A stretch of DNA of 64,000 nucleotides from Bacillales bacterium UBA5348. Its GTDB lineage: Bacteria; Bacillota_I; Bacilli_A; RF39; UBA660. The notes below the pieces were generated by a model. It searched no databases. It saw nothing but the letters and a program-made list of their open reading frames with translations, and was not told the DNA's origin. The stretch is taken from NCBI GenBank assembly GCA_002411005.1, contig DHQC01000013.1:68586-132585 (forward strand), in the 5' to 3' direction. This document shows, piece by piece, positions 4,550 to 44,681 of this stretch; the first letter of the stretch is position 1; each line of letters opens with the position of its first letter. A program made the position numbers and the translations under genes.

Positions 4550-4957
4550 ATGAAAATATTTATTATATGTAGCAAGGCATTCTATGATAGAATCCCCGAT
4601 ATTAAGCAAAAGCTAGAGGAAAACCATCACATGGTTTTTTTACCTAATTGTTATGACAATCCTGGTATGGAAGCTGAAATGCGTAATCTTGGTGCTGAAG
4701 AGCATTCGAAATTTAAAGCTAAAATGTTTAAACAAAGTGAAAAATTAACTAAAGATATGGACGCTGTGCTTGTTTTAAACTTTAATAAAAATGGTGTTGA
4801 TAATTATATAGGTGGAGCAACCTTTTTGGAAATGTATGATGCTTTCAGAATGAATAAAAAGATATATTTATATAATTCAATCCCTAAAGGAATGTTAGAA
4901 GATGAAATTATAGGTTTTAATCCCATATTGATTAATACTGATATTAATCAATTGTAA
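4550..4957 (+). CDS. small Rossmann-like protein, nucleoside 2-deoxyribosyltransferase-like (YtoQ-like) fold suspected
   Basis: 135 aa; MKIFIICS strand, DAVLVL strand, GGATFLEMYDAF resembles the D.GT.FE.G.A motif of the NDT family; no TM. Confidence 0.3.
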   Translation: MKIFIICSKAFYDRIPDIKQKLEENHHMVFLPNCYDNPGMEAEMRNLGAEEHSKFKAKMFKQSEKLTKDMDAVLVLNFNKNGVDNYIGGATFLEMYDAFRMNKKIYLYNSIPKGMLEDEIIGFNPILINTDINQL

Positions 4958-4961
4958 AAAT

Positions 4962-4992
4962 ATTTACATATAAACAATTGTGTGTTATAATC
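4962..4992 (+). promoter_or_regulatory. sigma-A type promoter for ssrA
   Basis: ttgtaa ... gttataat about 10 nt upstream of the tmRNA 5' end. Confidence 0.4.
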
Positions 4993-5002
4993 TTTCACAC
5001 AT

Positions 5003-5344
5003 GGGGCTGCTTGGTTTCGACGGGAACTATAAAGCTTAGATGGCAAGTCGTAGGCATGCGTTAAATCCATCAGTTTAATAACTGGAAATAATAAATTAGC
5101 ATTCGCTGCTTAATTAAGCATTAGCGAGCTCTTCTTATCGTTTTTCTCACGAAGGATATTAAGGGCACATTAAAGTGAGATATATCATTGTCTTGTTTGG
5201 GTGCAATGATGAAAATTACCAAACTAGTTAGTGATTGGTTGTTAATTTCTATAATTACTAATGAATTTAATAAATTAACTAAACTTGTAGAAGTCTCTGA
5301 AGTTATATTTTCGGACAGGGGTTCAATTCCCCTCAGCTCCACCA
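5003..5344 (+). ncRNA. ssrA: tmRNA (SsrA)
   Basis: 5' GGGGCTGCTTGGTTTCGACGGG and 3' GGACAGGGGTTCAATTCCCCTCAGCTCCACCA tRNA-like ends; internal tag reading frame ...GNNKLAFAA* (gga aat aat aaa tta gca ttc gct gct taa); immediately downstream of smpB. Confidence 0.9.
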
Positions 5345-5399
5345 ATAATTTTAAAATAAATGATAAAAACAATGAAGAGAAATAGTAATAAATTTATTA

Positions 5400-5587
5400 C
5401 TTAAAAGAGAGTTAGCGGCTGGTGCAAGCTAATAAGGGTAGTTTATGAACGTGTCTTGGAGTTGAATATTGAATTAAGTAAATATTCCGCATAGCTGTGT
5501 TAAAGTTTTGAGAGATAGTATTCATATACTATAATTAAGGTGGTACCGCGTTATAACGTCCTTTCAGGATTTTTATGACGTTTTTTT
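5400..5587 (+). promoter_or_regulatory. T-box riboswitch leader upstream of argS
   Basis: conserved T-box sequence aattaaggtggtaccgcg at 5533-5550; terminator hairpin acgtcctttcaggatttttatgacgt + T-run at 5556-5587 directly before the argS RBS. Confidence 0.75.
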
Positions 5588-5604
5588 ATAGAAGGAGAGA
5601 TAAG

Positions 5605-7317
5605 ATGATAACGGATGAATTAGAGGAAATATTTAGTAAAAATATAAATGAATTAGGTTATATTGGTGAGTATGGTAAGATAGCTACATCAAACCGAGCA
5701 GAGCTTTGTGATTATCAATGTAATGATATTTTTAAAATATCAAAAGAATATCATGAGAATCCAGTAGAAATTGGTGAAAAGATAGTTGAAAAAATAAAAT
5801 CATTAACAAATTACAGTGATTATTTTGATAATGTTGAATTTTCAAAACCAGGATTTATAAATATAACATTAAGTAATACTTTTATAAATAAACATGTTTT
5901 AAATATAATAACTAAATATAATTTAGGTGTTGAACAAAGCAAAAGTGAAAGAATATACTTTTTAGACTATGGTGGTCCAAATATAGCTAAGCCGTTACAT
6001 GTTGGTCATTTAAGAGCTGCAATAATTGGTGAATCACTTAAAAGAATTATTGAGTTTAAAGGATATAAAACAGTTGGCGATGTTCACTTAGGTGATTATG
6101 GCTTACAGATAGGTCAGGTTATTTATGGCTTGTTAGATGATTTTAAAGGTACAGCTTCAAAGGATATTGTTTTTGATTTAGCGTACTTGGATGAGTTATA
6201 TCCTAGAATGTCTAAATTATGCAAAGAGGATGAAGAGGTATTAAAGAGTGCCCAAAGAATAACTAAGGATCTTCAAGATGGTAATGAAGATTACCAAATA
6301 TTATGGAAAAAGATTTGTGAATTGTCTTCCGCTGATATAAAGGAGATATATAAATTTTTAGATGTATCATTTACTTTGTGGAATGGTGAAAGTGATAGTT
6401 ATCCTTACATACCCAAAATTATTAAATATTTAGAAGATAAAAACTTAATAGAATTAAGTGAAGGCGCTAAAATAGTTCAAGTAGGTGAAGAAACTGATGC
6501 AAAGGAAATGCCTCCATTCATATTACAAAAAAGTGATGGAGCATTCTTATATAGCACCACTGATTTAGCTACTATTTATGAAAGAATGGAAAAATATAAT
6601 CCGAGTCATATTCTATATGTTGTAGATGCAAGACAAAAATTACATTTTGAACAATTGTTTAGAGTTTGTAAAAAATCATTATTAGTAACTGATACTTCAT
6701 TAGAACATATTGGATTTGGTACTGTAAATGGTGTTGATGGTAAACCTTTTAAAACAAGAGATGGTGGATCTCTAAAACTTACTGATTTATTTTTACAAGT
6801 TAGGGAAGAATTTATTAATAAAAAAGAATCTAATCAAGAAATGTCATTTGAAGATGTAGATAAGATCGTTAATGCGATTATAAAGTTTGCTGATCTACAA
6901 AATAGCTTGGAAAACAATTATATATTTGATATAAAGAAATTTTCAGATGTGATTGGAAAGACAGGGCCATATATTTTGTATACTTATTTAAGAATTAATA
7001 AAATTCTAAGTAGTGAAAATTATAATATTAATTTATCTAATCAAATATATAACATTTATGATCGAAACTTAAGACTTAAATTATTAGAATTAAATTCATA
7101 TATAGACAAAGCTTTTAATGAGAGAAAACCAAGCTTTGTAGCTGATTATGTATATGAGTTATGTGTAACAGCAAATGCTTTTTATCAAAATAATTATATA
7201 GTTAATCTTGAAGATAATGAAAATAAGAGCGATTGGCTCAGTGTATTAAATATTTCAAATCAAGTAATTAAGAAGATGTTAGAATTATTAATTATTGAAA
7301 TTCCTACTCAAATGTAA
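5605..7317 (+). CDS. argS: arginine--tRNA ligase
   Basis: HIGH-region PNIAKPLHVGHLRAAIIG, class I ArgS length; GAAGGAGAG RBS before the ATG at 5605. The upstream ATG at 5575 lies inside the T-box terminator. Confidence 0.9.
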   Translation: MITDELEEIFSKNINELGYIGEYGKIATSNRAELCDYQCNDIFKISKEYHENPVEIGEKIVEKIKSLTNYSDYFDNVEFSKPGFINITLSNTFINKHVLNIITKYNLGVEQSKSERIYFLDYGGPNIAKPLHVGHLRAAIIGESLKRIIEFKGYKTVGDVHLGDYGLQIGQVIYGLLDDFKGTASKDIVFDLAYLDELYPRMSKLCKEDEEVLKSAQRITKDLQDGNEDYQILWKKICELSSADIKEIYKFLDVSFTLWNGESDSYPYIPKIIKYLEDKNLIELSEGAKIVQVGEETDAKEMPPFILQKSDGAFLYSTTDLATIYERMEKYNPSHILYVVDARQKLHFEQLFRVCKKSLLVTDTSLEHIGFGTVNGVDGKPFKTRDGGSLKLTDLFLQVREEFINKKESNQEMSFEDVDKIVNAIIKFADLQNSLENNYIFDIKKFSDVIGKTGPYILYTYLRINKILSSENYNINLSNQIYNIYDRNLRLKLLELNSYIDKAFNERKPSFVADYVYELCVTANAFYQNNYIVNLEDNENKSDWLSVLNISNQVIKKMLELLIIEIPTQM

Positions 7318-7323
7318 ATATAA

Positions 7324-7352
7324 GAAAAAGATCTTGATGTTCAAGATCTTTT
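7324..7352. terminator. bidirectional rho-independent terminator between argS and the HerA-like gene
   Basis: aaaagatcttgatgttcaagatctttt perfect hairpin flanked by A/T runs on both sides. Confidence 0.7.
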
Positions 7353-7354
7353 AT

Positions 7355-9136
7355 TTACTTAAAATGTCCACTCCATATATCAAACACAAGAGCATTACTA
7401 CTTTGTGGCGGTGGAGTTGGAGCCTCCAATTTGATAATCATTGGAATTTTGAAAGCTTTTCCTAAACCAACACAGTATCCTGGTTGAATGCTTCTTTGTT
7501 TCTCAATGATATCGGTATTTATGTTTGGTATTGCTTTTTTCATATATTCTAAGTCCCTAGGATGATTTGTTCTAAATAATAGGAAAGAAGAGCATTGTGA
7601 TAAAACAGTTTCAGAAAGTTCTGTTGGTCTTTGTGAAATTAATGTTAAAATTATTCCATATTTACGTCCTTCTTTAGCGATACTTTCAAAAACATTATTT
7701 CCATATATGATATTATAATCGTCTTTAACAAAACGGTGAGCTTCTTCTAAAAAGATATGAACAGGGATAGAGGCTCTGTTTTTTAAATTTGCAACAAAAT
7801 CAAACATTAATTTAGAATACGTTCGTGTAATAAAATATGCAAATTGGTCTTCAAGACCCTCAATATTAAAATCAATTATTTGTGTTCTTGCTTGACCGTT
7901 TTCGGTCACCAAGTCTGCAATATACCCTTCTAAATTAACATAATTTTGGTATTCAAAGTATTTGCTATATCCACCTACAACAAGTGCGTGTAATCTCATC
8001 TTTAGCATCATTGCACTATTATAGAGCTTTTCGTTACTTAATATATTTTCTGATATTATTACAAAATTAAGTGCATCTTCTAGATCTGTCAGGCTACATT
8101 TACCAACCATTTTAGTGGCTTGTTTTTCTAAATCATCATTTATAAATTGTTCAATATATTCACTTACTAGAATGTTTTCGGCAAATGTTCCTGTTTTATT
8201 AATGTCAAAACATTTTCTAAATTCTCTTGTGTAGCCTATGCCCGGGATTTCTATATTCATTGATAATTCATTTGTTGAACAAATACTAAGAATATCAAAT
8301 ATTTCACTTCTAATTCTGGTTGCTGACAGATTTGAATACATTAATGTTTGGATAGATTTTGCAATAATATGATTTTTGTATTTAGCAGCATTATCATTCC
8401 CTTGTGTTAAAATAGCTAGAACAAAAATTGTTTTCTCAATAATAGATAATTGGCTATATTCTGTCGCTCCAAGGAGGCATGCAATATCATCTATATCAAG
8501 TAGCCATAAAGGTATTGACATTAAATTTGCCTCATCGCTTGTATCTGTAGAATAACGTTTAACTTTATAATTTTGATTAATTGTATTTATATTTTTAAAT
8601 GCAGATGTATATTCCCCATGAGCATCAAAAAGTAGAATCATAGAGTTAAGTGCTATATTATTAGGATTCTGGTATAAAGATTGTAATATTCTAGCAACTC
8701 CATAGGATTTACCACTACCTGTATTACCAAAGATTGCAACATGGCCACTAAACAAATCATCAACATTAACATTTACAGGACGATTATATAAGACAGATGT
8801 ACCAAAAGAAAAACTCTTCTTATCGTTTGTATTCATAATGATATTTAACTCATCATCAGAAATTAATCTAACACTTGAATTTAACTTGGGCTTTCTTATT
8901 ACTCCGGGTACTAAAGTATTATCTTTAAATTCGCCTAAAAATTGTACATTAACAATGTCCCCATCTATTTCTTCTATTTCACCTAAAATTCTGCGTTCTC
9001 CGTCATCAAAAATAAGGTGTAAATTCATTAAATCTTTAGAAAAGGTTTCATTTGTTGTAATTTTCATTTTAGCTTCATTATCGTTTATAAATATTATCTT
9101 TTCTAACATAGTAATCACCTCTATCATCTCTTCCAT
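7355..9136 (-). CDS. HerA-like (DUF87) FtsK/HerA-superfamily ATPase, standalone
   Basis: 593 aa; N-terminal HAS-barrel-like region (GEIEEIDGDIVNVQFLGEF...PGVIRKP), Walker A VAIFGNTGSGKSYGV, Walker B IFLEEAHRFV, sensor region LISQRPTELSETVLSQCSSFLLFR. Confidence 0.7.
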   Translation of the reverse strand: MEEMIEVITMLEKIIFINDNEAKMKITTNETFSKDLMNLHLIFDDGERRILGEIEEIDGDIVNVQFLGEFKDNTLVPGVIRKPKLNSSVRLISDDELNIIMNTNDKKSFSFGTSVLYNRPVNVNVDDLFSGHVAIFGNTGSGKSYGVARILQSLYQNPNNIALNSMILLFDAHGEYTSAFKNINTINQNYKVKRYSTDTSDEANLMSIPLWLLDIDDIACLLGATEYSQLSIIEKTIFVLAILTQGNDNAAKYKNHIIAKSIQTLMYSNLSATRIRSEIFDILSICSTNELSMNIEIPGIGYTREFRKCFDINKTGTFAENILVSEYIEQFINDDLEKQATKMVGKCSLTDLEDALNFVIISENILSNEKLYNSAMMLKMRLHALVVGGYSKYFEYQNYVNLEGYIADLVTENGQARTQIIDFNIEGLEDQFAYFITRTYSKLMFDFVANLKNRASIPVHIFLEEAHRFVKDDYNIIYGNNVFESIAKEGRKYGIILTLISQRPTELSETVLSQCSSFLLFRTNHPRDLEYMKKAIPNINTDIIEKQRSIQPGYCVGLGKAFKIPMIIKLEAPTPPPQSSNALVFDIWSGHFK

Positions 9137-9312
9137 TATAAAGTAGATTTGTATTTAAGACAATATTTAATCACAATTTAATTATTTATAGGTTTATCTC
9201 TTAACAAAAAACAAAATCTATAAAAATGTCAAAAAGCAAAAGTTTGTTAGAATAACATAATTATTAGTAATATTTAAATTCTTAGGCTATAATATAATAA
9301 GGGTGATAAGAT

Positions 9313-11118
9313 ATGGAAATAAGGCTAAAAGAGCGTAGTGAAATAGAAGAAAAATATAAGTGGGATTTATCAATAATGTATAAAGATGATATGGAGTGGA
9401 ATAACGATTTTGATAAATTGCGTAATGATATGCAGGAGTTTTCAAAATATAAGGGAGTGTTAGGAAACAGTTCAAGTGATTTGTTATTAGCATTACAGGA
9501 AAAGGATAACTTAAATAGAAGGTTTGAAAAACTGGCTTCCTACGCAATGAGGAAAAGTGATGAAGACACTAGGGATATGGATGGAGCTAAGCTAAAAAAT
9601 ATGATCTTTAGTTTAGGGGCTGAGTTTGTTGAAATATCTTCATTTTTTGATCCTGAAATAATTAGTATTGGTAGGAATAAAATAGAACAGTTTATAGATG
9701 AAAAAGAAGCTCTTATGACTTATTGTCATTATTTAGAAAATATTATTCGTTTTAAAGAACACACTTTATCTTTGGAAGAAGAAAAAATCATGGCTAATGC
9801 GAGTGAAGTTTTATCTGCCCCTAGCAAGATCTTTACAATGCTTAATAATGCAGATATTAAATTTGAAAACATTAAAGATGAAGACGGTAACGTTGTTGAA
9901 TTAACTAATGGCAATTATAGTAAGTACATTTCATCTCATGATAGGAATGTTAGAAAGGATACTTTTAAAGTCTTGTATAAAGGTTATAAAGGTCTAAAAA
10001 ATACTTTTACTGAGGTTCTTATTGGGGATATTAAAGCTCATTATTTTGAATCTAAAAACAGAAAATTTTATAGTCCTTTAGAAATGTCACTTTTCAATAA
10101 TAATATTGATATTAAAATTTATTATAATGTTATAAAAGTAGTAAATATGAATTTAAATAAAATGCATAAGTATGTCAAAATGAAGAAAGATCTTTTAGGG
10201 CTAGAAGAGCTACATATGTATGATTTTTATGTTGCATTAATTAAGGAATATGATATTGAATACACATATGATGAAGCATTAAATCTTGTTTTTAAGGCAC
10301 TTACACCATTGGGGGAAGAATATATTAAAAATACTAAAGAGGCTTTTGATAAACGCTGGGTTGATGTGTATGAAAATAGGGGAAAGAGGACTGGTGCTTA
10401 TAGTTCTTTCGGTTATGATACCCCACCATATATTCTCTTAAATTATAATGGTAAGCTTCATAGTGTGAGTACTATTGCTCACGAGTTAGGACATTCACTG
10501 CATTCATATTATTCGGCTTTAAAACAACCATATATATATCATGAATATTCAATTTTCGTTGCTGAAGTAGCTTCTAATGTAAATGAAGTACTTTTAAACA
10601 TGTATATGATTGATAATGCTAAAAACAGGCAAGAAAAGATGTCTCTTATAAATGATTTTTTAGAAAGTGTAAAAGGATCAATATATCGTCAGACTATGTT
10701 TGCTGAATTTGAGAAAAAAATATATGAGCTTGAAAAGGACAAAAAGCCTTTAACAGAGCAAGCATTTAGTGATTTATATTACGAATTAAATAAAAAATAT
10801 TATGGAGAGGACATTATATCTGACGAAGAAATAAGATATGAATGGATGAGAATACCCCATTTTTATTATCAATTTTATGTTTACCAATATGCTACTGGTT
10901 TAGCAACTGCATTCTTTATAGCGAACAACATTTATAATGGTGATATTGCTTTTAGAGATAAATATATAAAATTTTTATCTAGTGGTAGTAGTGATTATCC
11001 AGTAGAACTCCTAAAAATACTTGGCGTAGATATGAAAAACGAAAAAACAATGCAGTGTATTCTTGATTACTTTGATACACAAATTGAGGAATTTCTTAAA
11101 CTAGCAAAAGAAAAATAA
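9313..11118 (+). CDS. pepF: oligoendopeptidase F (M3B family)
   Basis: 601 aa; zinc motif HELGHSLH; overall PepF-like. Confidence 0.85.
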   Translation: MEIRLKERSEIEEKYKWDLSIMYKDDMEWNNDFDKLRNDMQEFSKYKGVLGNSSSDLLLALQEKDNLNRRFEKLASYAMRKSDEDTRDMDGAKLKNMIFSLGAEFVEISSFFDPEIISIGRNKIEQFIDEKEALMTYCHYLENIIRFKEHTLSLEEEKIMANASEVLSAPSKIFTMLNNADIKFENIKDEDGNVVELTNGNYSKYISSHDRNVRKDTFKVLYKGYKGLKNTFTEVLIGDIKAHYFESKNRKFYSPLEMSLFNNNIDIKIYYNVIKVVNMNLNKMHKYVKMKKDLLGLEELHMYDFYVALIKEYDIEYTYDEALNLVFKALTPLGEEYIKNTKEAFDKRWVDVYENRGKRTGAYSSFGYDTPPYILLNYNGKLHSVSTIAHELGHSLHSYYSALKQPYIYHEYSIFVAEVASNVNEVLLNMYMIDNAKNRQEKMSLINDFLESVKGSIYRQTMFAEFEKKIYELEKDKKPLTEQAFSDLYYELNKKYYGEDIISDEEIRYEWMRIPHFYYQFYVYQYATGLATAFFIANNIYNGDIAFRDKYIKFLSSGSSDYPVELLKILGVDMKNEKTMQCILDYFDTQIEEFLKLAKEK

Positions 11119-11123
11119 GCGTT

Positions 11124-12398
11124 TTAGGAATGCTTATTTTTTGTGTTGAAAATATTTTTCAAAGAGCTTAGTCTTAAATATGTATTGTAGGTTTGTTTGT
11201 TAATAATTAAATTAAATTCTCCAATATATTCTACAACCTCTACGTTAAACCCTTTTTTAAATTCGTATAGTCCATAAAGAGGATCGCTTTTGTCAAAATT
11301 GCCTGTTATCCCATTGTGGTGAACAGAGGAATACCCTTTTTTTGTGAATTCATTTATTACAGCCCATTTAATTAAATGATTTGCAGAAAATGATTTAAAC
11401 TTTTCGTTGTATCCATCAATTAAAAAGAATGCCTCTTTATTATATTTAATAACGGCAGATGTAGCTATTACAACTTCATTTGGGTAGGCCTTAAATAAAT
11501 TGTTAGCATTAACAACATCGTTTTTATATACACTAAGTAATCTATCTGAGCTCATTTTTAAACTGATATATTTATTTTTCTTTTTACTCTTGGTGTTCTT
11601 TTGAACTAAATTTGTTATTTCACTGTTATATTTTAATTCATTTTCATATAAATTCTTACTTGTTTTCATATAAACTGCAGGATCTAATTTAGCAAAATAA
11701 ATGTCAAACATATCGTTTTTTGAGAATATTTCGTAATAATCAAAATAATAATTTAATTTTCTTGAATGTTTTTTACCAACCAAACTATAAAAGAGTTTTA
11801 AATCATTTCTATTACCCTTATATATTGTGACACCTCTTTTATAACTTTTTCTTATTTTATTTCTTGTTTCTTTATTAAATGAAGAAAAGGTTTGAGTAGA
11901 TGAGTTGTTTAACTTTGTAACAATATTCCATCTTGGTTTTGCTGTTTCAAAATTAAGATTAAATCCAAAATGAATATAATTCAGTTTTCCCAGAAGCTCA
12001 ATTAGATTTTCGTTATTAACACCACTTGGAATTGGGTTGCCCTTAATATCTCGCTCAACATGTATAACGTAGGGATCGATTGTAATATATATATAGCCTA
12101 GGCGAAACAAATAATTTTTAAGTAATTTTGTAAAGGTAGCTACTAAATTAAAATCATTAAAATCAATCAAAAAACCACGCGGTGCATAGCCAACTTTAAA
12201 ATTTCCTAATTTTTTATAACTTAGGATAAGGGTTGCTCCAATCAAATTATTACCATCATCTAACAAACCAACGTAAATATCAATATAGCCGTGACGATTC
12301 ATCAAAGCCCCATATTGACTAGTTTGGTAGAAATTATGATTTTTATGATTAAAAGCAAATTTATCAAATTGTTCTTTAGTTAATTCTATTATTTGCAT
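11124..12398 (-). CDS. FemAB-family peptidoglycan interpeptide-bridge aminoacyltransferase
   Basis: ~425 aa; FemA/FemX/MurM-like sequence throughout; probable start MQIIELTKEQ with AGGAA RBS (the track ORF extends 3 codons further to 12407). Confidence 0.7.
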   Translation of the reverse strand: MQIIELTKEQFDKFAFNHKNHNFYQTSQYGALMNRHGYIDIYVGLLDDGNNLIGATLILSYKKLGNFKVGYAPRGFLIDFNDFNLVATFTKLLKNYLFRLGYIYITIDPYVIHVERDIKGNPIPSGVNNENLIELLGKLNYIHFGFNLNFETAKPRWNIVTKLNNSSTQTFSSFNKETRNKIRKSYKRGVTIYKGNRNDLKLFYSLVGKKHSRKLNYYFDYYEIFSKNDMFDIYFAKLDPAVYMKTSKNLYENELKYNSEITNLVQKNTKSKKKNKYISLKMSSDRLLSVYKNDVVNANNLFKAYPNEVVIATSAVIKYNKEAFFLIDGYNEKFKSFSANHLIKWAVINEFTKKGYSSVHHNGITGNFDKSDPLYGLYEFKKGFNVEVVEYIGEFNLIINKQTYNTYLRLSSLKNIFNTKNKHS

Positions 12399-12531
12399 AT
12401 TCACCATTCCTATTCTTTATTATAACAAAAAAAGCTTTAAAAATAAAGGAATATGTTTTACATTTTTTTGCTCTATGTGATTAACAATTTAAAGCAAATA
12501 TAGTATACTGGATATTAGGAAAAGAGTTGGT

Positions 12532-13872
12532 ATGGTGGATAATAAAAAAAAAGCTTTTGTTTTAGGGATGGCAAGAAGTGGTTATGAAGCCGCTAAATTT
12601 TTAATTAGTAAGGGATATGATGTTACACTTAACGATTCTAAAGCTGAACAGGCAAAAGACCAGATGGAGGAACTTGAATCTTTAGGCGTAAAAATGAATT
12701 TAGGTAGTCATCCAGATGACTTATTTGATGATACTTTCGACATCATAGTGAAAAATCCTGGTATTCCAAATGATCATAAATATGTTGTAAAGGCTCATTA
12801 TTTAAATATTCCTGTAATTAATGAAGTTGAGCTTGCTTTTCGTTATTTCAATCCGGGAGTGAAAATTGTTGGGGTTACAGGGACGAATGGCAAAACAACA
12901 ACGACAACAATAATTTATGAAATCTTAAAATTTGCTGGAAAGAGTGCATATTTAATGGGAAATATAGGTTATCCAATATGTTCATTTGTGTCCAAATTAG
13001 AAGATGGTGATATAGCTGTTATGGAGATTTCAGATCATCAGCTATGTAATCTCTCTGATTTTAAAACTGACATTTCAGTTTTAACTAATTTGTCAGAGGC
13101 TCATCTTGATTTTCACGGTTCTTATACTGCTTATAAAGAAATGAAAAAAAGGATTTTTAATCATCATGATAAAAGTGATATAGCTATTCTTAATTTGGAT
13201 GATAGTGAGGTTTTAGATTTAACTAAAGATATTAATTCTACTAAAAAATATTTTTCGTCTCAGTCTCCTAATGAGAATGGCTGCTCAATTGTCGATGGAT
13301 ACATTTCTTATAACGATGAAAAAATAATAAATGTTGGGGAAATAAAAGTTAAAGGAATGCACAACTATGAGAATGTAATGGCTGCTATCGTTGTAGTTAA
13401 AGAATTTGACGTATCAAATGAGGTTATAGTTTCAGTTTTAAAGAGTTTCGGTGGTGTTGAACATCGTATTGAATATGTTAATAAAATAAATAATAGAGAG
13501 TTTTATAATGATTCTAAAGCCACTAATGTAACATCAACCCAAATAGCATTATCTTCATTTACTAAACCAACAATTTTATTGCTTGGTGGTTTGGATAGAG
13601 GACATAGTTTTGATGAATTAGAAGATTATCTGAAACACGTAAAATTAATTGTTGCTTATGGTGAAACTAGATATAGGATTAATGACTTTGCTAACGAACA
13701 TAATATTAAATGTGGAAATGTCGAGACATTAGAAGAAGCTACTAATATAGCTTATGAAATGTCTGAAGAGGGTGATGTCATTCTTCTTAGTCCGGCTTGT
13801 GCTTCATGGGATCAATTTAAATCTTTTGAAATTCGTGGTAAAATGTTTAAAGAGTTTGTAAATAAGTTATAA
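12532..13872 (+). CDS. murD: UDP-N-acetylmuramoyl-L-alanine--D-glutamate ligase
   Basis: 446 aa; GVTGTNGKTTTTT P-loop, Mur ligase middle and C-terminal domains. Confidence 0.9.
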   Translation: MVDNKKKAFVLGMARSGYEAAKFLISKGYDVTLNDSKAEQAKDQMEELESLGVKMNLGSHPDDLFDDTFDIIVKNPGIPNDHKYVVKAHYLNIPVINEVELAFRYFNPGVKIVGVTGTNGKTTTTTIIYEILKFAGKSAYLMGNIGYPICSFVSKLEDGDIAVMEISDHQLCNLSDFKTDISVLTNLSEAHLDFHGSYTAYKEMKKRIFNHHDKSDIAILNLDDSEVLDLTKDINSTKKYFSSQSPNENGCSIVDGYISYNDEKIINVGEIKVKGMHNYENVMAAIVVVKEFDVSNEVIVSVLKSFGGVEHRIEYVNKINNREFYNDSKATNVTSTQIALSSFTKPTILLLGGLDRGHSFDELEDYLKHVKLIVAYGETRYRINDFANEHNIKCGNVETLEEATNIAYEMSEEGDVILLSPACASWDQFKSFEIRGKMFKEFVNKL

Positions 13873-15111
<1,239 letters not shown>

Positions 15112-15232
15112 CAAATATAAAAGTGAGATTGAAAAAGCTCACTTTTTATCTAATAATCATATATAAGGGTTATATTATATCTTTATAAAAATTTTAACTC
15201 GTGTTATAATTTAAAAATAAGGGTGATGAAAA

Positions 15233-15694
15233 ATGAAAAATGTTAAGAAAAAGAAAATAACTAAAGTTATTGTTATTGATGAGGAATCCTCTGGTGATAA
15301 AATTGGAATAAACAAATTTATTGATTGGCTAATATATATGTTTGGCTATACAGTGATTTTGATTTTTGTATCTATAATATTTAACGAAACATTTATTATT
15401 GATAATAGTTATTTTGGAATTTGGGCCTTTTTAGCTAGTATTATTATTTATATTTTAAATAAAACTATAAAACCAATAATATTTTTATTGACACTTCCTA
15501 TTACCGGTATAACGTTAGGCTTATTTTATCCTTTTATAAATGTGTTTATAATTAAAATAGCAGACTTTATTTTAGGTAGTTATTTAGATACAAATAATAT
15601 ATTTACTTTATTTTTTGTTGCTATTGCTATATCTTTAATGAATTTTCTTTTAGAAAAAACAGTTATTGAACCACTAAAGAGAAGGGAGAATTAA
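15233..15694 (+). CDS. DUF360 / phage-holin-4-like family membrane protein
   Basis: 153 aa, 4 TM segments, LPITGITLGLF / IKIADFILGSYL pattern of the YvlD-like family. Confidence 0.45.
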   Translation: MKNVKKKKITKVIVIDEESSGDKIGINKFIDWLIYMFGYTVILIFVSIIFNETFIIDNSYFGIWAFLASIIIYILNKTIKPIIFLLTLPITGITLGLFYPFINVFIIKIADFILGSYLDTNNIFTLFFVAIAISLMNFLLEKTVIEPLKRREN

Positions 15695-15695
15695 C

Positions 15696-16514
15696 ATGAA
15701 TCCATATTTAATCGACGTTGGTTTCTTTCAAATAAGTTGGTATTCTGTTTTTATATTGTTAGGGCTTTTTGTTGGTGGAACACTGTTAATTTGGGAAGCT
15801 AGAAAATTTAGAATTAATGAAGAATTCCTTTCAAATTTAATATTTTGGACTTCCATAATATCGATTATTGGAGCTAGGCTTTATTATGTAGCTTTTAATT
15901 GGGATTATTATGGAGCTAATACAATGGATATTTTAAGGATTTGGGAGGGAGGTTTAGCTATTCATGGTGCAATCCTCTTCGGTTTTATCTTTATTTGTTT
16001 TTATACAATGAAATATAAAGTTAAGTTAGTTCGCATTCTTGATATTATCGCGCCAAGCCTTATAATAGGCCAAGCTATAGGTAGATGGGGTAATTTCTTT
16101 AATCAAGAGGCCTTTGGCAGTGAAGTAACAAGAGGCTTTTTAGAAGGATTGCATATTCCTGAATTTATTATTGAAGGAATGAATATAGGTGGTATTTATT
16201 ATCATCCAACCTTTTTTTATGAGTCGTTGTGGTGTTTGCTAGGCTTTATTATCTTATTGTTTGTTAGAAGATTTTATAAATATCTTAAAAATAGCCAACT
16301 AACTGGTTTATATTTCATGTGGTATTCCTTTGGTCGCTTCTTTATAGAAGGCCTTAGAACAGATAGTTTAATGATTGGTGAATTTAAAGTTGCCCAATTA
16401 GTTTCGATAGGGTTATTTATAATTGGTTTTATTATAGTGATTTCCAAATTCAAAGGTTCAAAATTTGAAGGACTTTATAAGGAGGGGGATAATGCAAAAT
16501 CAATTAATTTTTGA
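15696..16514 (+). CDS. lgt: prolipoprotein diacylglyceryl transferase
   Basis: 272 aa polytopic; GARLYYV, WEGGLAIHG, GRWGNFFNQE Lgt signature. Confidence 0.9.
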   Translation: MNPYLIDVGFFQISWYSVFILLGLFVGGTLLIWEARKFRINEEFLSNLIFWTSIISIIGARLYYVAFNWDYYGANTMDILRIWEGGLAIHGAILFGFIFICFYTMKYKVKLVRILDIIAPSLIIGQAIGRWGNFFNQEAFGSEVTRGFLEGLHIPEFIIEGMNIGGIYYHPTFFYESLWCLLGFIILLFVRRFYKYLKNSQLTGLYFMWYSFGRFFIEGLRTDSLMIGEFKVAQLVSIGLFIIGFIIVISKFKGSKFEGLYKEGDNAKSINF

Positions 16515-17415
16515 TGTAATAGTTGTAGGTAGTGGTCCAGCTGGTATAACAGCAGCTATATATCTAAAAATGGCCAATCTGAATGTTTTAATGATAGATA
16601 GCAACGCCCCAGGTGGTCAAGTGAATAAAATATCGGTAATCGAAAATTATCCTGGTTTTTCTCATATTTCTGGCGCTGATTTAGCATATAATATGTTTGC
16701 TCAAACCCAAGATTTAGATATACCATATAAGTATGGTAAAGTTGTTGATATTATAAATGATGGAAATCAGAAGATTATAAAAACTGAAAAAGAATCTTTA
16801 CAATGTAAGGTTGTTATTATTGCGACAGGTCGTAAACCTAAAGAATTGGGTTTGCCAAATGAAAAGAACTTAATTGGAAAGGGAATAAGTTGGTGTGCCA
16901 TTTGTGACGGAGCACTATTCAAAAATAAAGATGTTATTGTTGTAGGTGGTGGAAATAGCGCTTTAGAGGAAAGTTTATATTTAAGTAATATAGCTAATAA
17001 AGTTAGTATTATTCATCGTTCAAAGGAACTATCTTGTGATGAAATATTCAAAGATCGTGTTCTTAAAAGTCCTAAAATTGATATATATCATAATGCTGAG
17101 GTTATTAAATTAAATGTTTTTAAAAATAAGCTTGAGAGTGTTGAAATAGAACAACTTGGTGAAAAACAAAAAGTAAGTGCCTCAGGAGTGTTCATATATA
17201 TTGGTTTTGAACCATCTATTTTTTATGCAGAAGGTTTAGACCTTGATGTTCATGATGGCTATATCAATGTAGATAAGGATATGAGGACGAATGTTGCTGG
17301 TGTATATGCCTGTGGTGATGTGATAAAAAAAGATTTATATCAAATTACAACTGCTATATCCGATGGTAGTGTGGCAGCTACTAGTGCTATAAAATATTTA
17401 AAAGAAATTGAATAA
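16492..17415 (+). CDS. trxB: thioredoxin-disulfide reductase
   Basis: FAD motif VVGSGPAG, redox-active CAICDG, NADPH motif VVGGGNSA; start at MQNQ after GGAGGGGG RBS (track ORF starts 9 codons upstream, inside lgt). Confidence 0.9.
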   Translation: MQNQLIFDVIVVGSGPAGITAAIYLKMANLNVLMIDSNAPGGQVNKISVIENYPGFSHISGADLAYNMFAQTQDLDIPYKYGKVVDIINDGNQKIIKTEKESLQCKVVIIATGRKPKELGLPNEKNLIGKGISWCAICDGALFKNKDVIVVGGGNSALEESLYLSNIANKVSIIHRSKELSCDEIFKDRVLKSPKIDIYHNAEVIKLNVFKNKLESVEIEQLGEKQKVSASGVFIYIGFEPSIFYAEGLDLDVHDGYINVDKDMRTNVAGVYACGDVIKKDLYQITTAISDGSVAATSAIKYLKEIE

Positions 17416-41613: not shown

Positions 41614-42171
41614 TTATAGACCTTTTGCTTTATATTCTTTATATAAATCTAAAAATCTTTCGAAATGTATTATCTCCCTTTGCCTTAAAAAGGATAGTGG
41701 TGCAATGACATCGGGGTCGTTTGTAAGATTAATTAGATTCTCATATACAGCTCTTGCTTTTTGCTCTGCTGCCATATCTTCAACTATATCTGCAATAGGG
41801 TCGCCCGTTGTTGCAAAATAAGCTACTGTAAAAGGCACACCATTAGCATCTGTTGGGTAAATAGCATTTCCATGTTCAGCATAATGTGATCCTATTCCAG
41901 CTTCTTTTAGCTCCTCGGGGGTGGCACCTTTCATAAGTTGATAAGCCATAGCAGAAATCATTTCAACATGAGCTAATTCTTCAGTAGCTATATCGGTAAG
42001 CACAGCTTTTCCCTTTTCATTAGGCATTGTATATCTTTGATTTAGGTATCTTAGAGCAGCAGCTAATTCACCATTGCTGCCACCGTATTGAGTGATCAAA
42101 TACTTTGCCATCTTTAAATCCTTATTTCTAATATTTACTGGATATTCCAGTTTTTTTTCGTATTTCCACAT
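41614..42171 (-). CDS. cotJC: spore coat protein CotJC (manganese-catalase-like)
   Basis: 185 aa; ferritin-like Mn-catalase motifs (EELAHVEMI, HYAEHG). Confidence 0.8.
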   Translation of the reverse strand: MWKYEKKLEYPVNIRNKDLKMAKYLITQYGGSNGELAAALRYLNQRYTMPNEKGKAVLTDIATEELAHVEMISAMAYQLMKGATPEELKEAGIGSHYAEHGNAIYPTDANGVPFTVAYFATTGDPIADIVEDMAAEQKARAVYENLINLTNDPDVIAPLSFLRQREIIHFERFLDLYKEYKAKGL

Positions 42172-42172
42172 A

Positions 42173-42613
42173 TTAATTCACCTCCCATGGCCATGGGGAT
42201 GATATCCAAGCCCACGGATATGAATTTAATGTTTCACTTTCTAAAGAAAGTGGACCATATCTATTTTCATACTCGTTTCTTGTATTTTTGTATTGTGTCA
42301 TGCTTTGATTGAAGGCTCTTATTTTTTCCCCGTCCTGTGGATGGGTATCGAGATATAAACCTAAGTCAATCACTGAAAAATCGTATTCTCTAACTTTATT
42401 CAAAAGTGCTTCTCGTTCGTCTCTTGGATTTAAATTAAAAGGTTCCCCAGCTATATAAGGTTCGTATAAATCAGTAAATATATTTCCTCTAATAAATCCT
42501 TCGTAGGAATTAGTTATATTTGGACTATGTTGGTTACTAGTTGGAAGTAAATATTTATTTGTATTCCTTGGTATCAAATAGTCATTTTGATTATAATTTG
42601 AATAATTATACAT
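42173..42613 (-). CDS. fused CotJA-CotJB spore coat protein
   Basis: N-terminal EGFIRGNIFTDLYEPY (CotJA-like) and C-terminal FSVIDLGLYLDTHPQD (CotJB) in one 146-aa ORF directly upstream of cotJC. Confidence 0.6.
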   Translation of the reverse strand: MYNYSNYNQNDYLIPRNTNKYLLPTSNQHSPNITNSYEGFIRGNIFTDLYEPYIAGEPFNLNPRDEREALLNKVREYDFSVIDLGLYLDTHPQDGEKIRAFNQSMTQYKNTRNEYENRYGPLSLESETLNSYPWAWISSPWPWEVN

Positions 42614-42683
42614 TATAATCCTCCTTCAAATTATACTATGTTAATCATCCAAGTGTGAACATGGCAAATATCCTTCTTACAGT

Positions 42684-43658
42684 TTAAAAGCTGAAATAAC
42701 TGCCTGTTCCAAGTTTGCAATCACGTCCTGTCAAGTATGAAAGGTTGGGAAATACTTTATATAAAAATTTGATACTTTTTTGGTCAAGTAAAACCTTATC
42801 TACTTCGTTAATTATTTGTTCAGCTTTAGATAGCGCAATTGAATAAAGTTCTATAAAAGAATAATTATAAATATCGTTTTTATCTAGAGGGTGATACCAA
42901 TAGTCTTTGCTTAAGTTTAAATAATAATCATTATTATTTAGTTTAATATTATAGGAGATAACGTCCATTTTAACGTTAAACGGGAACACTTTCATTATCT
43001 TATAGGCACTTTTTTTAAAGCCTGTACGATCATTCCTGAAAATTGAATAAAATGTTTTCATTTGTTTAATAGTTGTTTTATATTTGTTTCCAATTGAATT
43101 CTCATCAAATGTCTTTTTAAAGACAATGTCAATTATTTCTATTAAATTATCGGATACGTTAGTATCTTGAAAACAAAACCGATGACTATTAAAATTATGT
43201 GGTTTAACCTTGCCTCTAACTAGCATAAAATAAGCATCTATATATGCTTCCATTTGATCGTGCCCTCCAAAATACTTATGGGTTGATTTCCTGTTTTTAT
43301 CAAAAATACCAGTTTTATAAAGAACCATAGGGTGAATGGTCATATCTAATACATAGTGAGCTATAAAACCATATAAAAATGCTCTTACTTCAGGATTATT
43401 ATGTAATTTTTTTTGTTTAATAGTATCAACTAAATTAACAAAGAATAATTGAGTTTTATTTTTTTGCATAAAATGTCCGAGTTCTCTAATTCTTTTTCCT
43501 CTCTTTAAATTCATAAGATTATAAAAAAAGAAAACATCAGGTCCTTGTGCAAACACCTTAAATTGTTCCTTAGCAGACTTTAATAGTTTTTGTTTATTAA
43601 CGTCGAAACGATCATATAAATCCATGCTGAAATAAGCATGTGTAATAGTACTAGGCAT
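42684..43658 (-). CDS. zinc-dependent phospholipase C / P1-nuclease-like fold protein (cytoplasmic)
   Basis: 324 aa; THAYFSMDLY near the N-terminus and FLYGFIAHYVLDMTIHPM resemble the Zn-PLC H/D metal ligands; no signal peptide. Confidence 0.4.
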   Translation of the reverse strand: MPSTITHAYFSMDLYDRFDVNKQKLLKSAKEQFKVFAQGPDVFFFYNLMNLKRGKRIRELGHFMQKNKTQLFFVNLVDTIKQKKLHNNPEVRAFLYGFIAHYVLDMTIHPMVLYKTGIFDKNRKSTHKYFGGHDQMEAYIDAYFMLVRGKVKPHNFNSHRFCFQDTNVSDNLIEIIDIVFKKTFDENSIGNKYKTTIKQMKTFYSIFRNDRTGFKKSAYKIMKVFPFNVKMDVISYNIKLNNNDYYLNLSKDYWYHPLDKNDIYNYSFIELYSIALSKAEQIINEVDKVLLDQKSIKFLYKVFPNLSYLTGRDCKLGTGSYFSF

Positions 43659-43748
43659 ATGACACTCCTTTTTACATTATACAATTATAACATAAATAAT
43701 ATTAAAAAAAGGCAGAATATATGTTATAATTTATAGTAGGTGAATGAC

Positions 43749-44681
43749 ATGATTAGAAAAAAAGTTTTTAAAAATTTAGATGAACAAATCGAAATTTTAC
43801 AAAGCAAAGGCCTGACAATTAACGATATAGAAAAAACAAAAGAAATTCTTCTTCGAGAAAATTATTTTTTTATAAGTGGTTATCGTTACATTTTTATGAA
43901 ATCAGTGAAAAATAAGGTTTTCTTAGATGGAACAACATTTGAGGAATTATATGCTTTTTTTACGTTCGATCGCAGCTTACGAAACATATTTTTTAAACAT
44001 TTATTAGTCGTAGAGAATAATTTAAAATCAATTTTTAGTTATCAACTATCTAAACAATATGGTATAAGAGAAAAAGACTATTTAAAAGCTTCAAATTTTA
44101 CAAAAGATATAACGAAAGCAAGGCAGGTCGCTGATGTTCTTCACAAAATGAAGAGACAAGTCAGGGTTAATGGCTCACAGCATTCAGCAACAAGACATTA
44201 TATGATAAATTATGGATATATTCCACTATGGATATTAGTTAAAGTTTTATCTTTTGGTATAATCGGCGAACTATATTGTATTTTAAAACCCGAAGATCAA
44301 CAGGTAATAGCTGATTATTATGATTTAGATGTAGAAAGTTTTATGATATTTTTGCCATTGCTTTCTAATTGTAGAAATTTATGTGCACATGAAGATATTC
44401 TATTTGATCATCGCACCCAAAGATCAATCCTTGATAATGAATATCATTTAAAACTTAAAATACCAATGGAAAATGATGAATATATTTATGGGAAAAACGA
44501 TTTGTTTGCTTATATCCTTATTTTTAAATCAATGTTAAGAGAAGAGGAATTTAGACACTTAGTATATGAAGTAGATTATGAGATAGCTAGATTAGATGGT
44601 AAGGTATCAGTTATCCCTGTTGAGAAAATCTTAAACAGGATAGGATTTCCTAATAATTGGCGTGAAATTGTAGATTTGTAA
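43749..44681 (+). CDS. Abi_2 (AbiD/AbiF-like) abortive-infection family protein
   Basis: ~310 aa; LDEQIEILQSKGLTI, NYFFISGYRY, FDRSLRNIFFKHLLVVENNLKSIFSY match the Abi_2/Abi-alpha family N-terminal signature; AGGTGA RBS. Confidence 0.7.
   Translation: MIRKKVFKNLDEQIEILQSKGLTINDIEKTKEILLRENYFFISGYRYIFMKSVKNKVFLDGTTFEELYAFFTFDRSLRNIFFKHLLVVENNLKSIFSYQLSKQYGIREKDYLKASNFTKDITKARQVADVLHKMKRQVRVNGSQHSATRHYMINYGYIPLWILVKVLSFGIIGELYCILKPEDQQVIADYYDLDVESFMIFLPLLSNCRNLCAHEDILFDHRTQRSILDNEYHLKLKIPMENDEYIYGKNDLFAYILIFKSMLREEEFRHLVYEVDYEIARLDGKVSVIPVEKILNRIGFPNNWREIVDL

Follow-up and report, generated by a model that had tools for sequence, protein, structure and literature searches.

To our knowledge, every bacterial HerA studied so far is half of a pair with SIR2, DUF4297 or NurA, and annotation pipelines treat DUF87/HerA matches as defense-linked. 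Here we describe a herA gene on the minus strand of a 64,000-nucleotide stretch of contig DHQC01000013.1 of Bacillales bacterium UBA5348, referred to below as the window, whose product belongs to a clade of HerA proteins outside the two-gene format that we call solo HerA. We favor the reading, at a rough probability of 0.55, that solo HerA is a monophyletic, vertically inherited clade of stand-alone ATPases in a large lineage of uncultured gut Bacilli with small genomes of low guanine-plus-cytosine (GC) content. On this reading it would act as a housekeeping motor on DNA of the bacterium itself, in chromosome handling, recombination or repair, either unaided or with a partner whose gene lies elsewhere. 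We found the clade undescribed in the literature searched. The gene in the window is as follows:

7355..9109, minus strand: probable true coding sequence of the stand-alone HerA-family ATPase, 584 amino acids, stop codon at 7355-7357 (from homolog starts, Shine-Dalgarno sequence, Pfam DUF87, PADLOC HerA and structure).

The nearest branch in our tree holds the HerAs of SIR2-HerA pairs (Nezha-type; Listeria pLM1-2cUG1 WP_003728474 and SaHerA, 8YHO/8YHX), which have their domain order and catalytic motifs in common with solo HerA and are 28–31% identical to it over residues ∼53–579, with SaHerA (8YHX) as its best structural match (E = 8e-31, template-modeling score 0.72–0.76). In these pairs the SIR2 gene overlaps the start of herA, whereas solo herA has no SIR2 gene, is chromosomal, lies in housekeeping operons, is inherited vertically and evolves slowly, and its product carries 20 clade-specific invariant residues. 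The N-terminal barrel of SaHerA docks Sir2, and deletion of its residues 1–35 abolishes activity (PMC11514289). The first ∼50 residues of solo HerA are not alignable to SIR2-linked HerAs and this end is ∼30 residues shorter, a comparison that has no residue-level mapping.

Other described systems share parts of this picture. The HerAs of DUF4297-HerA (9C1M, 8XAU, 8ZIQ) have the EGRKYG, SQRP and C-terminal P-x-P...W motifs in common with solo HerA, while solo herA has no adjoining DUF4297 nuclease gene or defense context and an insertion domain that is not alignable to theirs by sequence. NurA-HerA of archaea and of Deinococcus/Thermus (4D2I; E = 4e-38 to solo HerA) is the one HerA system with a housekeeping DNA-repair role and has the same superfamily membership and ring-translocase logic; in contrast, solo herA has no adjoining NurA, and its helical domain is enlarged like that of bacterial defense HerAs where the archaeal one is a four-helix bundle. 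FtsK, SpoIIIE and SftA, of the same superfamily again, are stand-alone motors on the cell's own chromosome; unlike them, solo HerA has a HAS-barrel and is without alpha and gamma domains and membrane anchor, and a true FtsK co-occurs with it in one genome (L014).

By its sequence and predicted structure, the herA product is a HerA-family ATPase with the full fold and with catalytic motifs that are intact and invariant. It matches Pfam PF01935 (DUF87, 'Helicase HerA central domain') at 85.1 bits against a cut-off of 23.2, and the PADLOC HerA model PDLC04102 over residues 64–588 (E = 1.6e-96). Pfam FtsK_SpoIIIE reaches 19.6 bits, under its cut-off of 24, without alpha or gamma domain matches, and the product has neither membrane segments nor a gamma domain. 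The solo clade is captured by no curated model: the NCBIfam equivalogs for anti-phage HerA (NF042944, 169.8 against a cut-off of 850; NF042943, 148.6 against 800) and for repair HerA (NF040937, 116.5 against 800; NF040819, 107.6 against 970) all fail.

We built an AlphaFold2 model of the product on 30 homologs (predicted local distance difference test 83.7; predicted template-modeling score 0.83). The model consists of an N-terminal beta-barrel (∼10–115), a RecA-like core split by a helical insertion (∼215–412), the second half of the core (∼413–570) and a short C-terminal tail. Searched as a whole chain with Foldseek, it returned the HerAs of SIR2-HerA (8YHX, 8WLD, 8SUB, 8J4U) and DUF4297-HerA (9C1M, 8XAU, 8ZIT) at E about 1e-30 and 18–24% identity, and a sequence profile of the family found 9C1M (8.9e-60) and 8XAU (3.4e-54) as best among solved structures. 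An earlier reading of the window made from its letters, here called the sequence-only reading, had proposed a HerA-family ATPase with intact Walker motifs and a HAS-barrel plus RecA-like architecture. The profile matches and invariant motifs agree with the first proposal, and the model and its full-length structural match with both. Its suggestion that an extra ∼90 residues might carry an effector function did not survive structure prediction, in which the whole chain superposes on HerAs with no extra fold; the 'extra' residues are the enlarged helical insertion of all bacterial HerAs of 560–700 amino acids. The parts of the protein are placed on the window as follows, with residues counted in the longest open reading frame:

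8792..9109, minus strand: N-terminal beta-barrel (HAS-barrel), residues 10-115 in open reading frame numbering; beta strands at 11-114 in the model, conserved within the clade.
8705..8728, minus strand: Walker A / P-loop GNTGSGKS (K143); G137, G140, G142 and K143 are invariant in the clade and common to the outgroups.
7901..8494, minus strand: helical insertion (helical-bundle) domain, residues 215-412; helices at 215-410 in the model.
7736..7759, minus strand: Walker B HIFLEEAH (E464, E465), invariant.
7655..7672, minus strand: EGRKYG, putative trans-acting arginine finger (R491/K492), invariant; aligns with the EGRKYG of 8XAU HerA.
7619..7639, minus strand: ISQRPTE motif (Q502, R503, P504), conserved across HerAs in the alignment.
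7358..7426, minus strand: C-terminal tail with a P-x-P-x-P-x-S-S...W motif, likely a 'brace' onto the neighboring subunit; P573, P575, P577, S579 and W588 are invariant.

Several of these parts have counterparts in solved structures. R491/K492 align with R455/K456 of 8XAU HerA, described as a trans R finger, and in the related structure 8XAW, DUF4297-HerA was shown to translocate double-stranded DNA, threaded through a spiral-staircase hexamer, and its helical domain touches DNA at the pore entrance (PMC11291478). The C-terminal motif also aligns in the DUF4297-HerA HerAs 9C1M and 8XAU, and a C-terminal brace has been described for SaHerA and SsHerA (PMC11514289). Nine of the 20 clade-specific invariant positions, which are rare elsewhere, fall in the helical insertion (E234, I258, R276, G301, Y302, R304, C309, L349 and S362).

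By homology to these systems, six solo HerA subunits would assemble into a ring, with N-terminal barrel, RecA-like core and C-terminal brace all contributing to the contacts between them. ATP would be bound at the subunit interfaces by Walker A K143 and Walker B E464/E465 and sensed by R491/K492 of the neighboring subunit, and sequential hydrolysis would drive double-stranded DNA through the central pore, with the helical insertion domain as a possible entry gate. Expression would resemble that of growth genes, with herA transcribed along with ftsY-ylxM in most species and from a sigma-A-type promoter match in the window. As to origin, the HerA of SIR2-HerA defense pairs is most likely either the forebear of solo HerA or its relative through a recent common ancestor.

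The clade is broad and uniform in length. A collection of 5.8 billion proteins yielded more than 4,291 homologs, and the best 120 of these are all full length (∼580–590 amino acids) and at least 48% identical; those with a named source derive from metagenome-assembled genomes of 'Bacilli bacterium'. When one genome per species was scanned, at least 412 loci proved to encode the protein, of which we kept 80; all of these encode full-length proteins (∼585 amino acids) that are 44–51% identical over the whole length. Their carriers are labeled uncultured Bacilli, Tenericutes or Mollicutes, Clostridium sp. CAG:451 and Candidatus Onthousia; among them are complete chromosomes, 1.20 and 1.34 Mb long. 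When 1.84 billion representatives were searched exhaustively, 5,053 matches came back, with only about a dozen 50%-identity clusters spanning the full length at 35–47% identity; past those, identity is ∼30% and the proteins are longer, at 600–700 amino acids.

Some labels and members of the clade are unusual. Contigs with the gene order ftsY-ylxM-herA that are labeled Muribaculaceae, Sphaerochaetaceae, Roseburia or Ignavibacteriales (L008, L009, L012, L044, L045, L055) are probably mislabeled or contaminated bins, and the protein P0113, whose 134 contigs reach 238 kb, carries the name 'Bacteriophage sp.' in nr, probably also in error. A second full-length solo herA is present in two species, in tandem in L048 (10001-13621) and in L029 (10028-14564), where two prepilin-type (N_methyl) genes separate the copies. 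Some members (P0122, P0123, P0126, P0127, P0128 and L064, at L064:9953-12532) carry long, disordered tails rich in Ser, Asn, Thr and Pro, which are C-terminal and ∼75–360 amino acids long, with an N-terminal one of ∼160 in P0126. Being of low complexity and without Pfam match, these extensions proved uninformative as a clue to function save for possible short motifs: 'EHNPALDFG' occurs three times in P0122, and a similar 'FI(E/D)NM' end in P0123 and P0128 looks like a tethered docking motif. In the long-tailed P0128 both Walker motifs are degenerate as well (A, GNDGFGKS; B, LLIDNAH), and this member may be an inactive paralog.

We placed the clade relative to known HerAs with a distance-based neighbor-joining tree, whose root is arbitrary. 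The solo clade, including its basal members P0129, P0130 and P0137, is monophyletic in 300 of 300 bootstrap replicates. The HerAs of Listeria and Enterococcus plasmids are monophyletic with P0134, P0133 and P0143 in 291 of 300, and this plasmid-HerA group, P0135 and the solo clade together form a clade in 288 of 300. A SIR2 gene overlaps the herA start in every outgroup with a visible upstream gene (P0134, P0135, P0146 and the Listeria plasmid), and an unannotated gene of similar size takes the same overlapping position beside the Enterococcus plasmid herA. Judged from this tree, the solo clade is sister to, or nested within, the SIR2-linked HerAs at ∼30% identity. Because the root is arbitrary, we can only infer the direction of change.

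Conservation was measured against flanking and linked genes. Between the window and two relatives in which herA has the same neighbor (L003 and L093), HerA is 78–85% identical, compared with 65–71% for the product of pepF, 75–76% for murD, 71–78% for femAB and 81–87% for enolase. The ratio of nonsynonymous to synonymous substitution rates (dN/dS) of herA in these comparisons is about 0.04–0.06, with dS saturated, and herA evolves as slowly as enolase under strong purifying selection. In pairwise comparisons over 61 species, identity averages 64% for HerA, 70% for FtsY and 52% for YlxM, and the distances of HerA correlate with those of FtsY (Mantel r = 0.64, none of 999 permutations as high). 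Taken together, this correlation, the low dN/dS and the breadth of the distribution show that herA behaves as a vertically inherited, strongly constrained gene.

To describe gene order, open reading frames were called mechanically in all loci and genes were clustered by single linkage. In 60 of 78 species loci, ylxM (Pfam UPF0122, 1.4e-24) lies directly upstream of herA on the same strand and is preceded by ftsY, and two more loci that are cut by contig ends have the same upstream genes. The gap between ylxM and herA has a median of about 12 nt, for which reason the two are almost certainly co-transcribed, as judged from spacing. Of 74 loci, 13 have ffh directly 3′ of herA, and 23 have it within four genes. 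We looked for a hidden recurrent partner among the neighbors and rejected this possibility, since nothing beyond ftsY, a small membrane protein, ylxM, ffh and RNase J recurs.

Outside this dominant arrangement, herA occupies a small number of other positions. In 6 of the 78 loci it lies directly upstream of dnaA-dnaN-(ComK-like)-recF, in the replication-origin region. Three of these species have an opposite-strand jag-yidC-rnpA upstream of it, and the other three have ltaS. These are the following loci:

L051, L058, L082 (about 7800-16600); L023, L049, L067: dnaA-type loci.

The spacers between herA and dnaA in this arrangement are mostly about 260–450 bp. In relatives at 63–67% identity herA directly follows dinB, downstream of ruvAB-queA-tgt, and in the window and its relatives L003 and L093, at 78–82% identity, it forms a divergent pair with pepF. 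The dnaA and dinB/ruvAB contexts lend mild support to a role on DNA. The basal members are also solitary, P0129 beside ltaS and enolase and P0130 after a ParA/AAA_31-like gene and near cotE, and solo HerA is solitary in every context seen.

A number of points weigh against a housekeeping role. In every member the proposed function rests on sequence and context, the carriers being uncultured throughout, and the 'core' status of the gene comes from match counts and synteny, not from whole-genome presence and absence. The close characterized relatives are all anti-phage proteins, and the PADLOC HerA match is strong. The gene sits at no fewer than four different chromosomal sites, and accessory genes move too; that it moved among at least four sites also means that no adjacent partner is needed. 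Its commonest context, the signal recognition particle (SRP) operon, is without evident link to DNA metabolism, and no LexA box was found upstream of herA. A complete FtsK co-occurs in one genome. Finally, on a neighbor-joining tree with an arbitrary root, 'derived from a defense HerA' and 'sister to defense HerAs' are indistinguishable.

A more specific version of the favored reading, which we offer tentatively and with the odds somewhat against it, is that an immune motor was domesticated. A SIR2-paired HerA would have lost its effector and become fixed as a slow, essential-like gene across an order-level lineage of gut Bacilli, in the ftsY-ylxM-ffh operon or beside dnaA, where it would serve a housekeeping DNA transaction without a dedicated nuclease partner. 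If so, no stand-alone housekeeping HerA would have been described from bacteria before.

The main rival is that solo HerA is still an anti-phage protein, either as a single-gene system or as half of a split system with its effector (SIR2 or a nuclease) elsewhere in the chromosome. Its closest relatives of known context are SIR2-HerA pairs in defense islands or on plasmids, and it matches the PADLOC HerA model strongly. The HerA of a type III Sir2-HerA system has been reported to be a nickase in its own right (PMC13434337), which in principle would let a HerA damage DNA with no effector. The window also holds an Abi_2/AbiD-like abortive-infection gene (43740-44681, plus strand; Pfam Abi_2 1.7e-38, PADLOC AbiD 7.1e-55), which is its only clear defense-type gene, although this lies 35 kb from herA.

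To examine defense context more widely, we scanned the 150 distinct neighbor families found within four positions of herA with Pfam and PADLOC. By Pfam these are housekeeping families (DnaA, RecA, EzrA, Lon, transfer RNA synthetases, acetate kinase and others), PADLOC gave singletons only (one each of AbiLi, SspH and PDC-S01) and generic ATPase matches, and there was no recurrent defense gene among the 150. No SIR2, DUF4297 or NurA was seen adjoining herA in the related loci examined. Members of the solo clade were absent from 50,697 phage records and 2.9 million viral contigs, and plasmids held only SIR2-linked HerAs at ∼31% identity; on these grounds we rejected a phage or plasmid origin.

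We therefore consider the anti-phage explanation unlikely. Against it stand the conservation of the full-length protein in no fewer than 80 species, with fixed positions among housekeeping genes, a dN/dS of about 0.05 and an enolase-like rate, the lack of any recurring defense neighbor, the absence of the clade from viral contigs and phages, and the 170 and 149 bits reached by the two anti-phage equivalogs, with their cut-offs of 850 and 800. The Sir2-docking N-terminal segment of SaHerA likewise has no aligned counterpart in solo HerA, with the reservation on residue-level mapping given above. The sequence-only reading had leaned toward a defense-associated or novel single-gene system, for which co-inheritance with ftsY, purifying selection, the 60 of 78 ftsY-ylxM-herA loci and the absence of a recurrent defense gene leave little room. 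That reading had also named the contrary case, a conserved housekeeping factor with uniform synteny and no link to defense islands; the conservation and the lack of defense association are what we observe, and the synteny is dominant, not uniform.

A second alternative, which we judge to be quite unlikely, is a DNA pump associated with chromosome segregation or the replication origin, in the manner of FtsK, SftA or SpoIIIE. Solo HerA belongs to the same FtsK-HerA superfamily, herA lies directly upstream of dnaA in six species, and one basal member (P0130) follows a ParA/AAA_31-like ATPase. However, the FtsK_SpoIIIE score is below cut-off, membrane segments and a gamma domain are lacking, and the dnaA context accounts for only 6 of 78 loci. 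Moreover, the complete 1.34 Mb genome L014 encodes a canonical FtsK with alpha, motor and gamma domains 2.6 kb from herA, from which it follows that solo HerA is no simple FtsK substitute, and we rejected replacement of FtsK for that reason.

A partnership with YlxM or the SRP pathway appears very unlikely. Here solo HerA would be, for example, an ATPase that translocates proteins or associates with the membrane, or else a motor that YlxM, a helix-turn-helix protein, loads onto DNA. The ∼12 nt between ylxM and herA in 60 of 78 species is a tighter link than that of ylxM and ffh (ffh directly downstream in 13 of 74), and the FtsK-like ATPases EssC and VirB4 move proteins. Against this, YlxM is widespread in Firmicutes without solo HerA, herA is unlinked from ylxM in the window's subclade and in the dinB and dnaA types, and characterized HerA-clade proteins all act on DNA.

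The weakest alternative is that herA entered the argS-pepF junction recently by horizontal transfer, or is there as the cargo of a mobile element. The surroundings of the gene in the window are as follows:

5575..7317, plus strand: argS, flanking gene (TIGR00456, 359 bits).
7326..7352, both strands: bidirectional intrinsic terminator common to herA and argS, with a 12-bp stem and T-runs on both sides (terminator score, folding).
9135..9163, minus strand: sigma-A-type promoter match, TTGTCT (9163-9158), 17 nt spacer, TATAAT (9140-9135); 10 of 12 consensus matches.
9313..11118, plus strand: pepF, flanking gene, divergent from herA (TIGR00181, 606 bits).

We give this explanation almost no credence: herA does run opposite to nearly all of its neighbors with its own promoter match and terminator, and the smpB-side flank is variable in relatives, but it is native in GC content, GC content at third codon positions (GC3) and codon usage, neither integrase nor repeats nor mobile genes adjoin it, the clade is missing from the phage and viral collections (plasmids carrying only distant SIR2-linked HerAs), and the pepF-herA pairing kept in L003 and L093 contradicts it.

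The composition of herA is native, not foreign, with a GC content of 0.28–0.29 equal to that of the flanks, a GC3 of 0.19 equal to the window median, and a synonymous-codon likelihood that ranks 21st of 47 genes. The stretch on the smpB side was compared across the three loci:

L003:9789-15079 and L093:8872-14754: variable herA-smpB region, compared with window 4550-7317.

In both relatives this stretch lacks argS and contains small open reading frames without Pfam match, together with genes for a sigma-70 factor and a LysM-CAP protein. Since the pepF side is constant and the herA-smpB side variable, herA was not 'inserted between argS and pepF', as the sequence-only reading had put it; rather, the pepF-herA pair is kept and the side beyond herA differs between loci. 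In the window, directly 3′ of smpB, a 135-amino-acid open reading frame (4550-4957, plus strand) is without Pfam match and keeps the same position in L003.

The remaining description of the locus given earlier was confirmed. A single, monocistronic minus-strand gene lies between plus-strand argS and pepF, and the 7326-7352 hairpin is scored as terminator-like whichever strand is read (folding energy −14.6 kcal/mol, z = −5.5). No partner adjoins it: PADLOC models for SIR2 and DUF4297 had no match in the other 58 open reading frames of the window, and no NurA adjoins herA, where PADLOC is without a NurA model and Pfam covered about half of the window's open reading frames.

The longest open reading frame, which is real, covers 7355-9136 on the minus strand and has 593 codons. 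We propose that translation probably starts at M10 (ATG at 9109), giving 584 amino acids, which fits the 580–590 of the orthologs, because every homolog begins at residue 10 with none covering residues 1–9, GAGGTGA lies 5 nt upstream of this ATG, and the ATG at 9136 falls within the −10 box of the best promoter match. The surplus is thus probably leader:

9110..9136, minus strand: nine surplus codons of the longest open reading frame, probably 5′ untranslated leader, with Shine-Dalgarno GAGGTGA at 9115-9121 (sequence read).

The promoter match TTGTCT-17-TATAAT is the region's best promoter-like site, though it is a consensus match only, and such sites are no commoner here than in shuffles. Regulation of herA by the SOS response was considered and rejected, as there is no LexA-type box upstream and the sole near-match is at the dinB start in L001 (L001:6681), just upstream of herA, where CAAACAAGCGTTCG is a LexA-type box with one mismatch; the herA of L001 has a sigma-A-like promoter of its own and no LexA-type box.

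Other genes in the window and in related loci bear on the lineage more than on herA. A minus-strand three-gene block at 41614-43658 encodes a CotJC-like Mn-catalase, CotJB and a Zn-dependent phospholipase C-like protein, and among relatives CotE is found in L089 and a weak CotD-like gene after ffh. From the cotJC/cotJB block and these CotE- and CotD-like genes, the lineage seems to keep spore-coat genes besides its peptidoglycan genes (femAB, murD). In a further locus (L094:10142-15350) the order is comN-like, secDF, relA, dtd, without the recJ and apt that presumably sit between secDF and relA in Bacillus subtilis.

Solo HerA, then, is a HerA outside the two-gene format. Since the clade is kept alone under enolase-like constraint in genomes of 1.2–1.3 Mb, a HerA motor can function without an adjacent effector. 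A HerA match alone is accordingly insufficient to call a gene defensive. The clade also offers a concrete candidate case of genes passing between immunity and housekeeping, and in an abundant gut lineage without cultured members, herA is a probably important gene that has gone unstudied.

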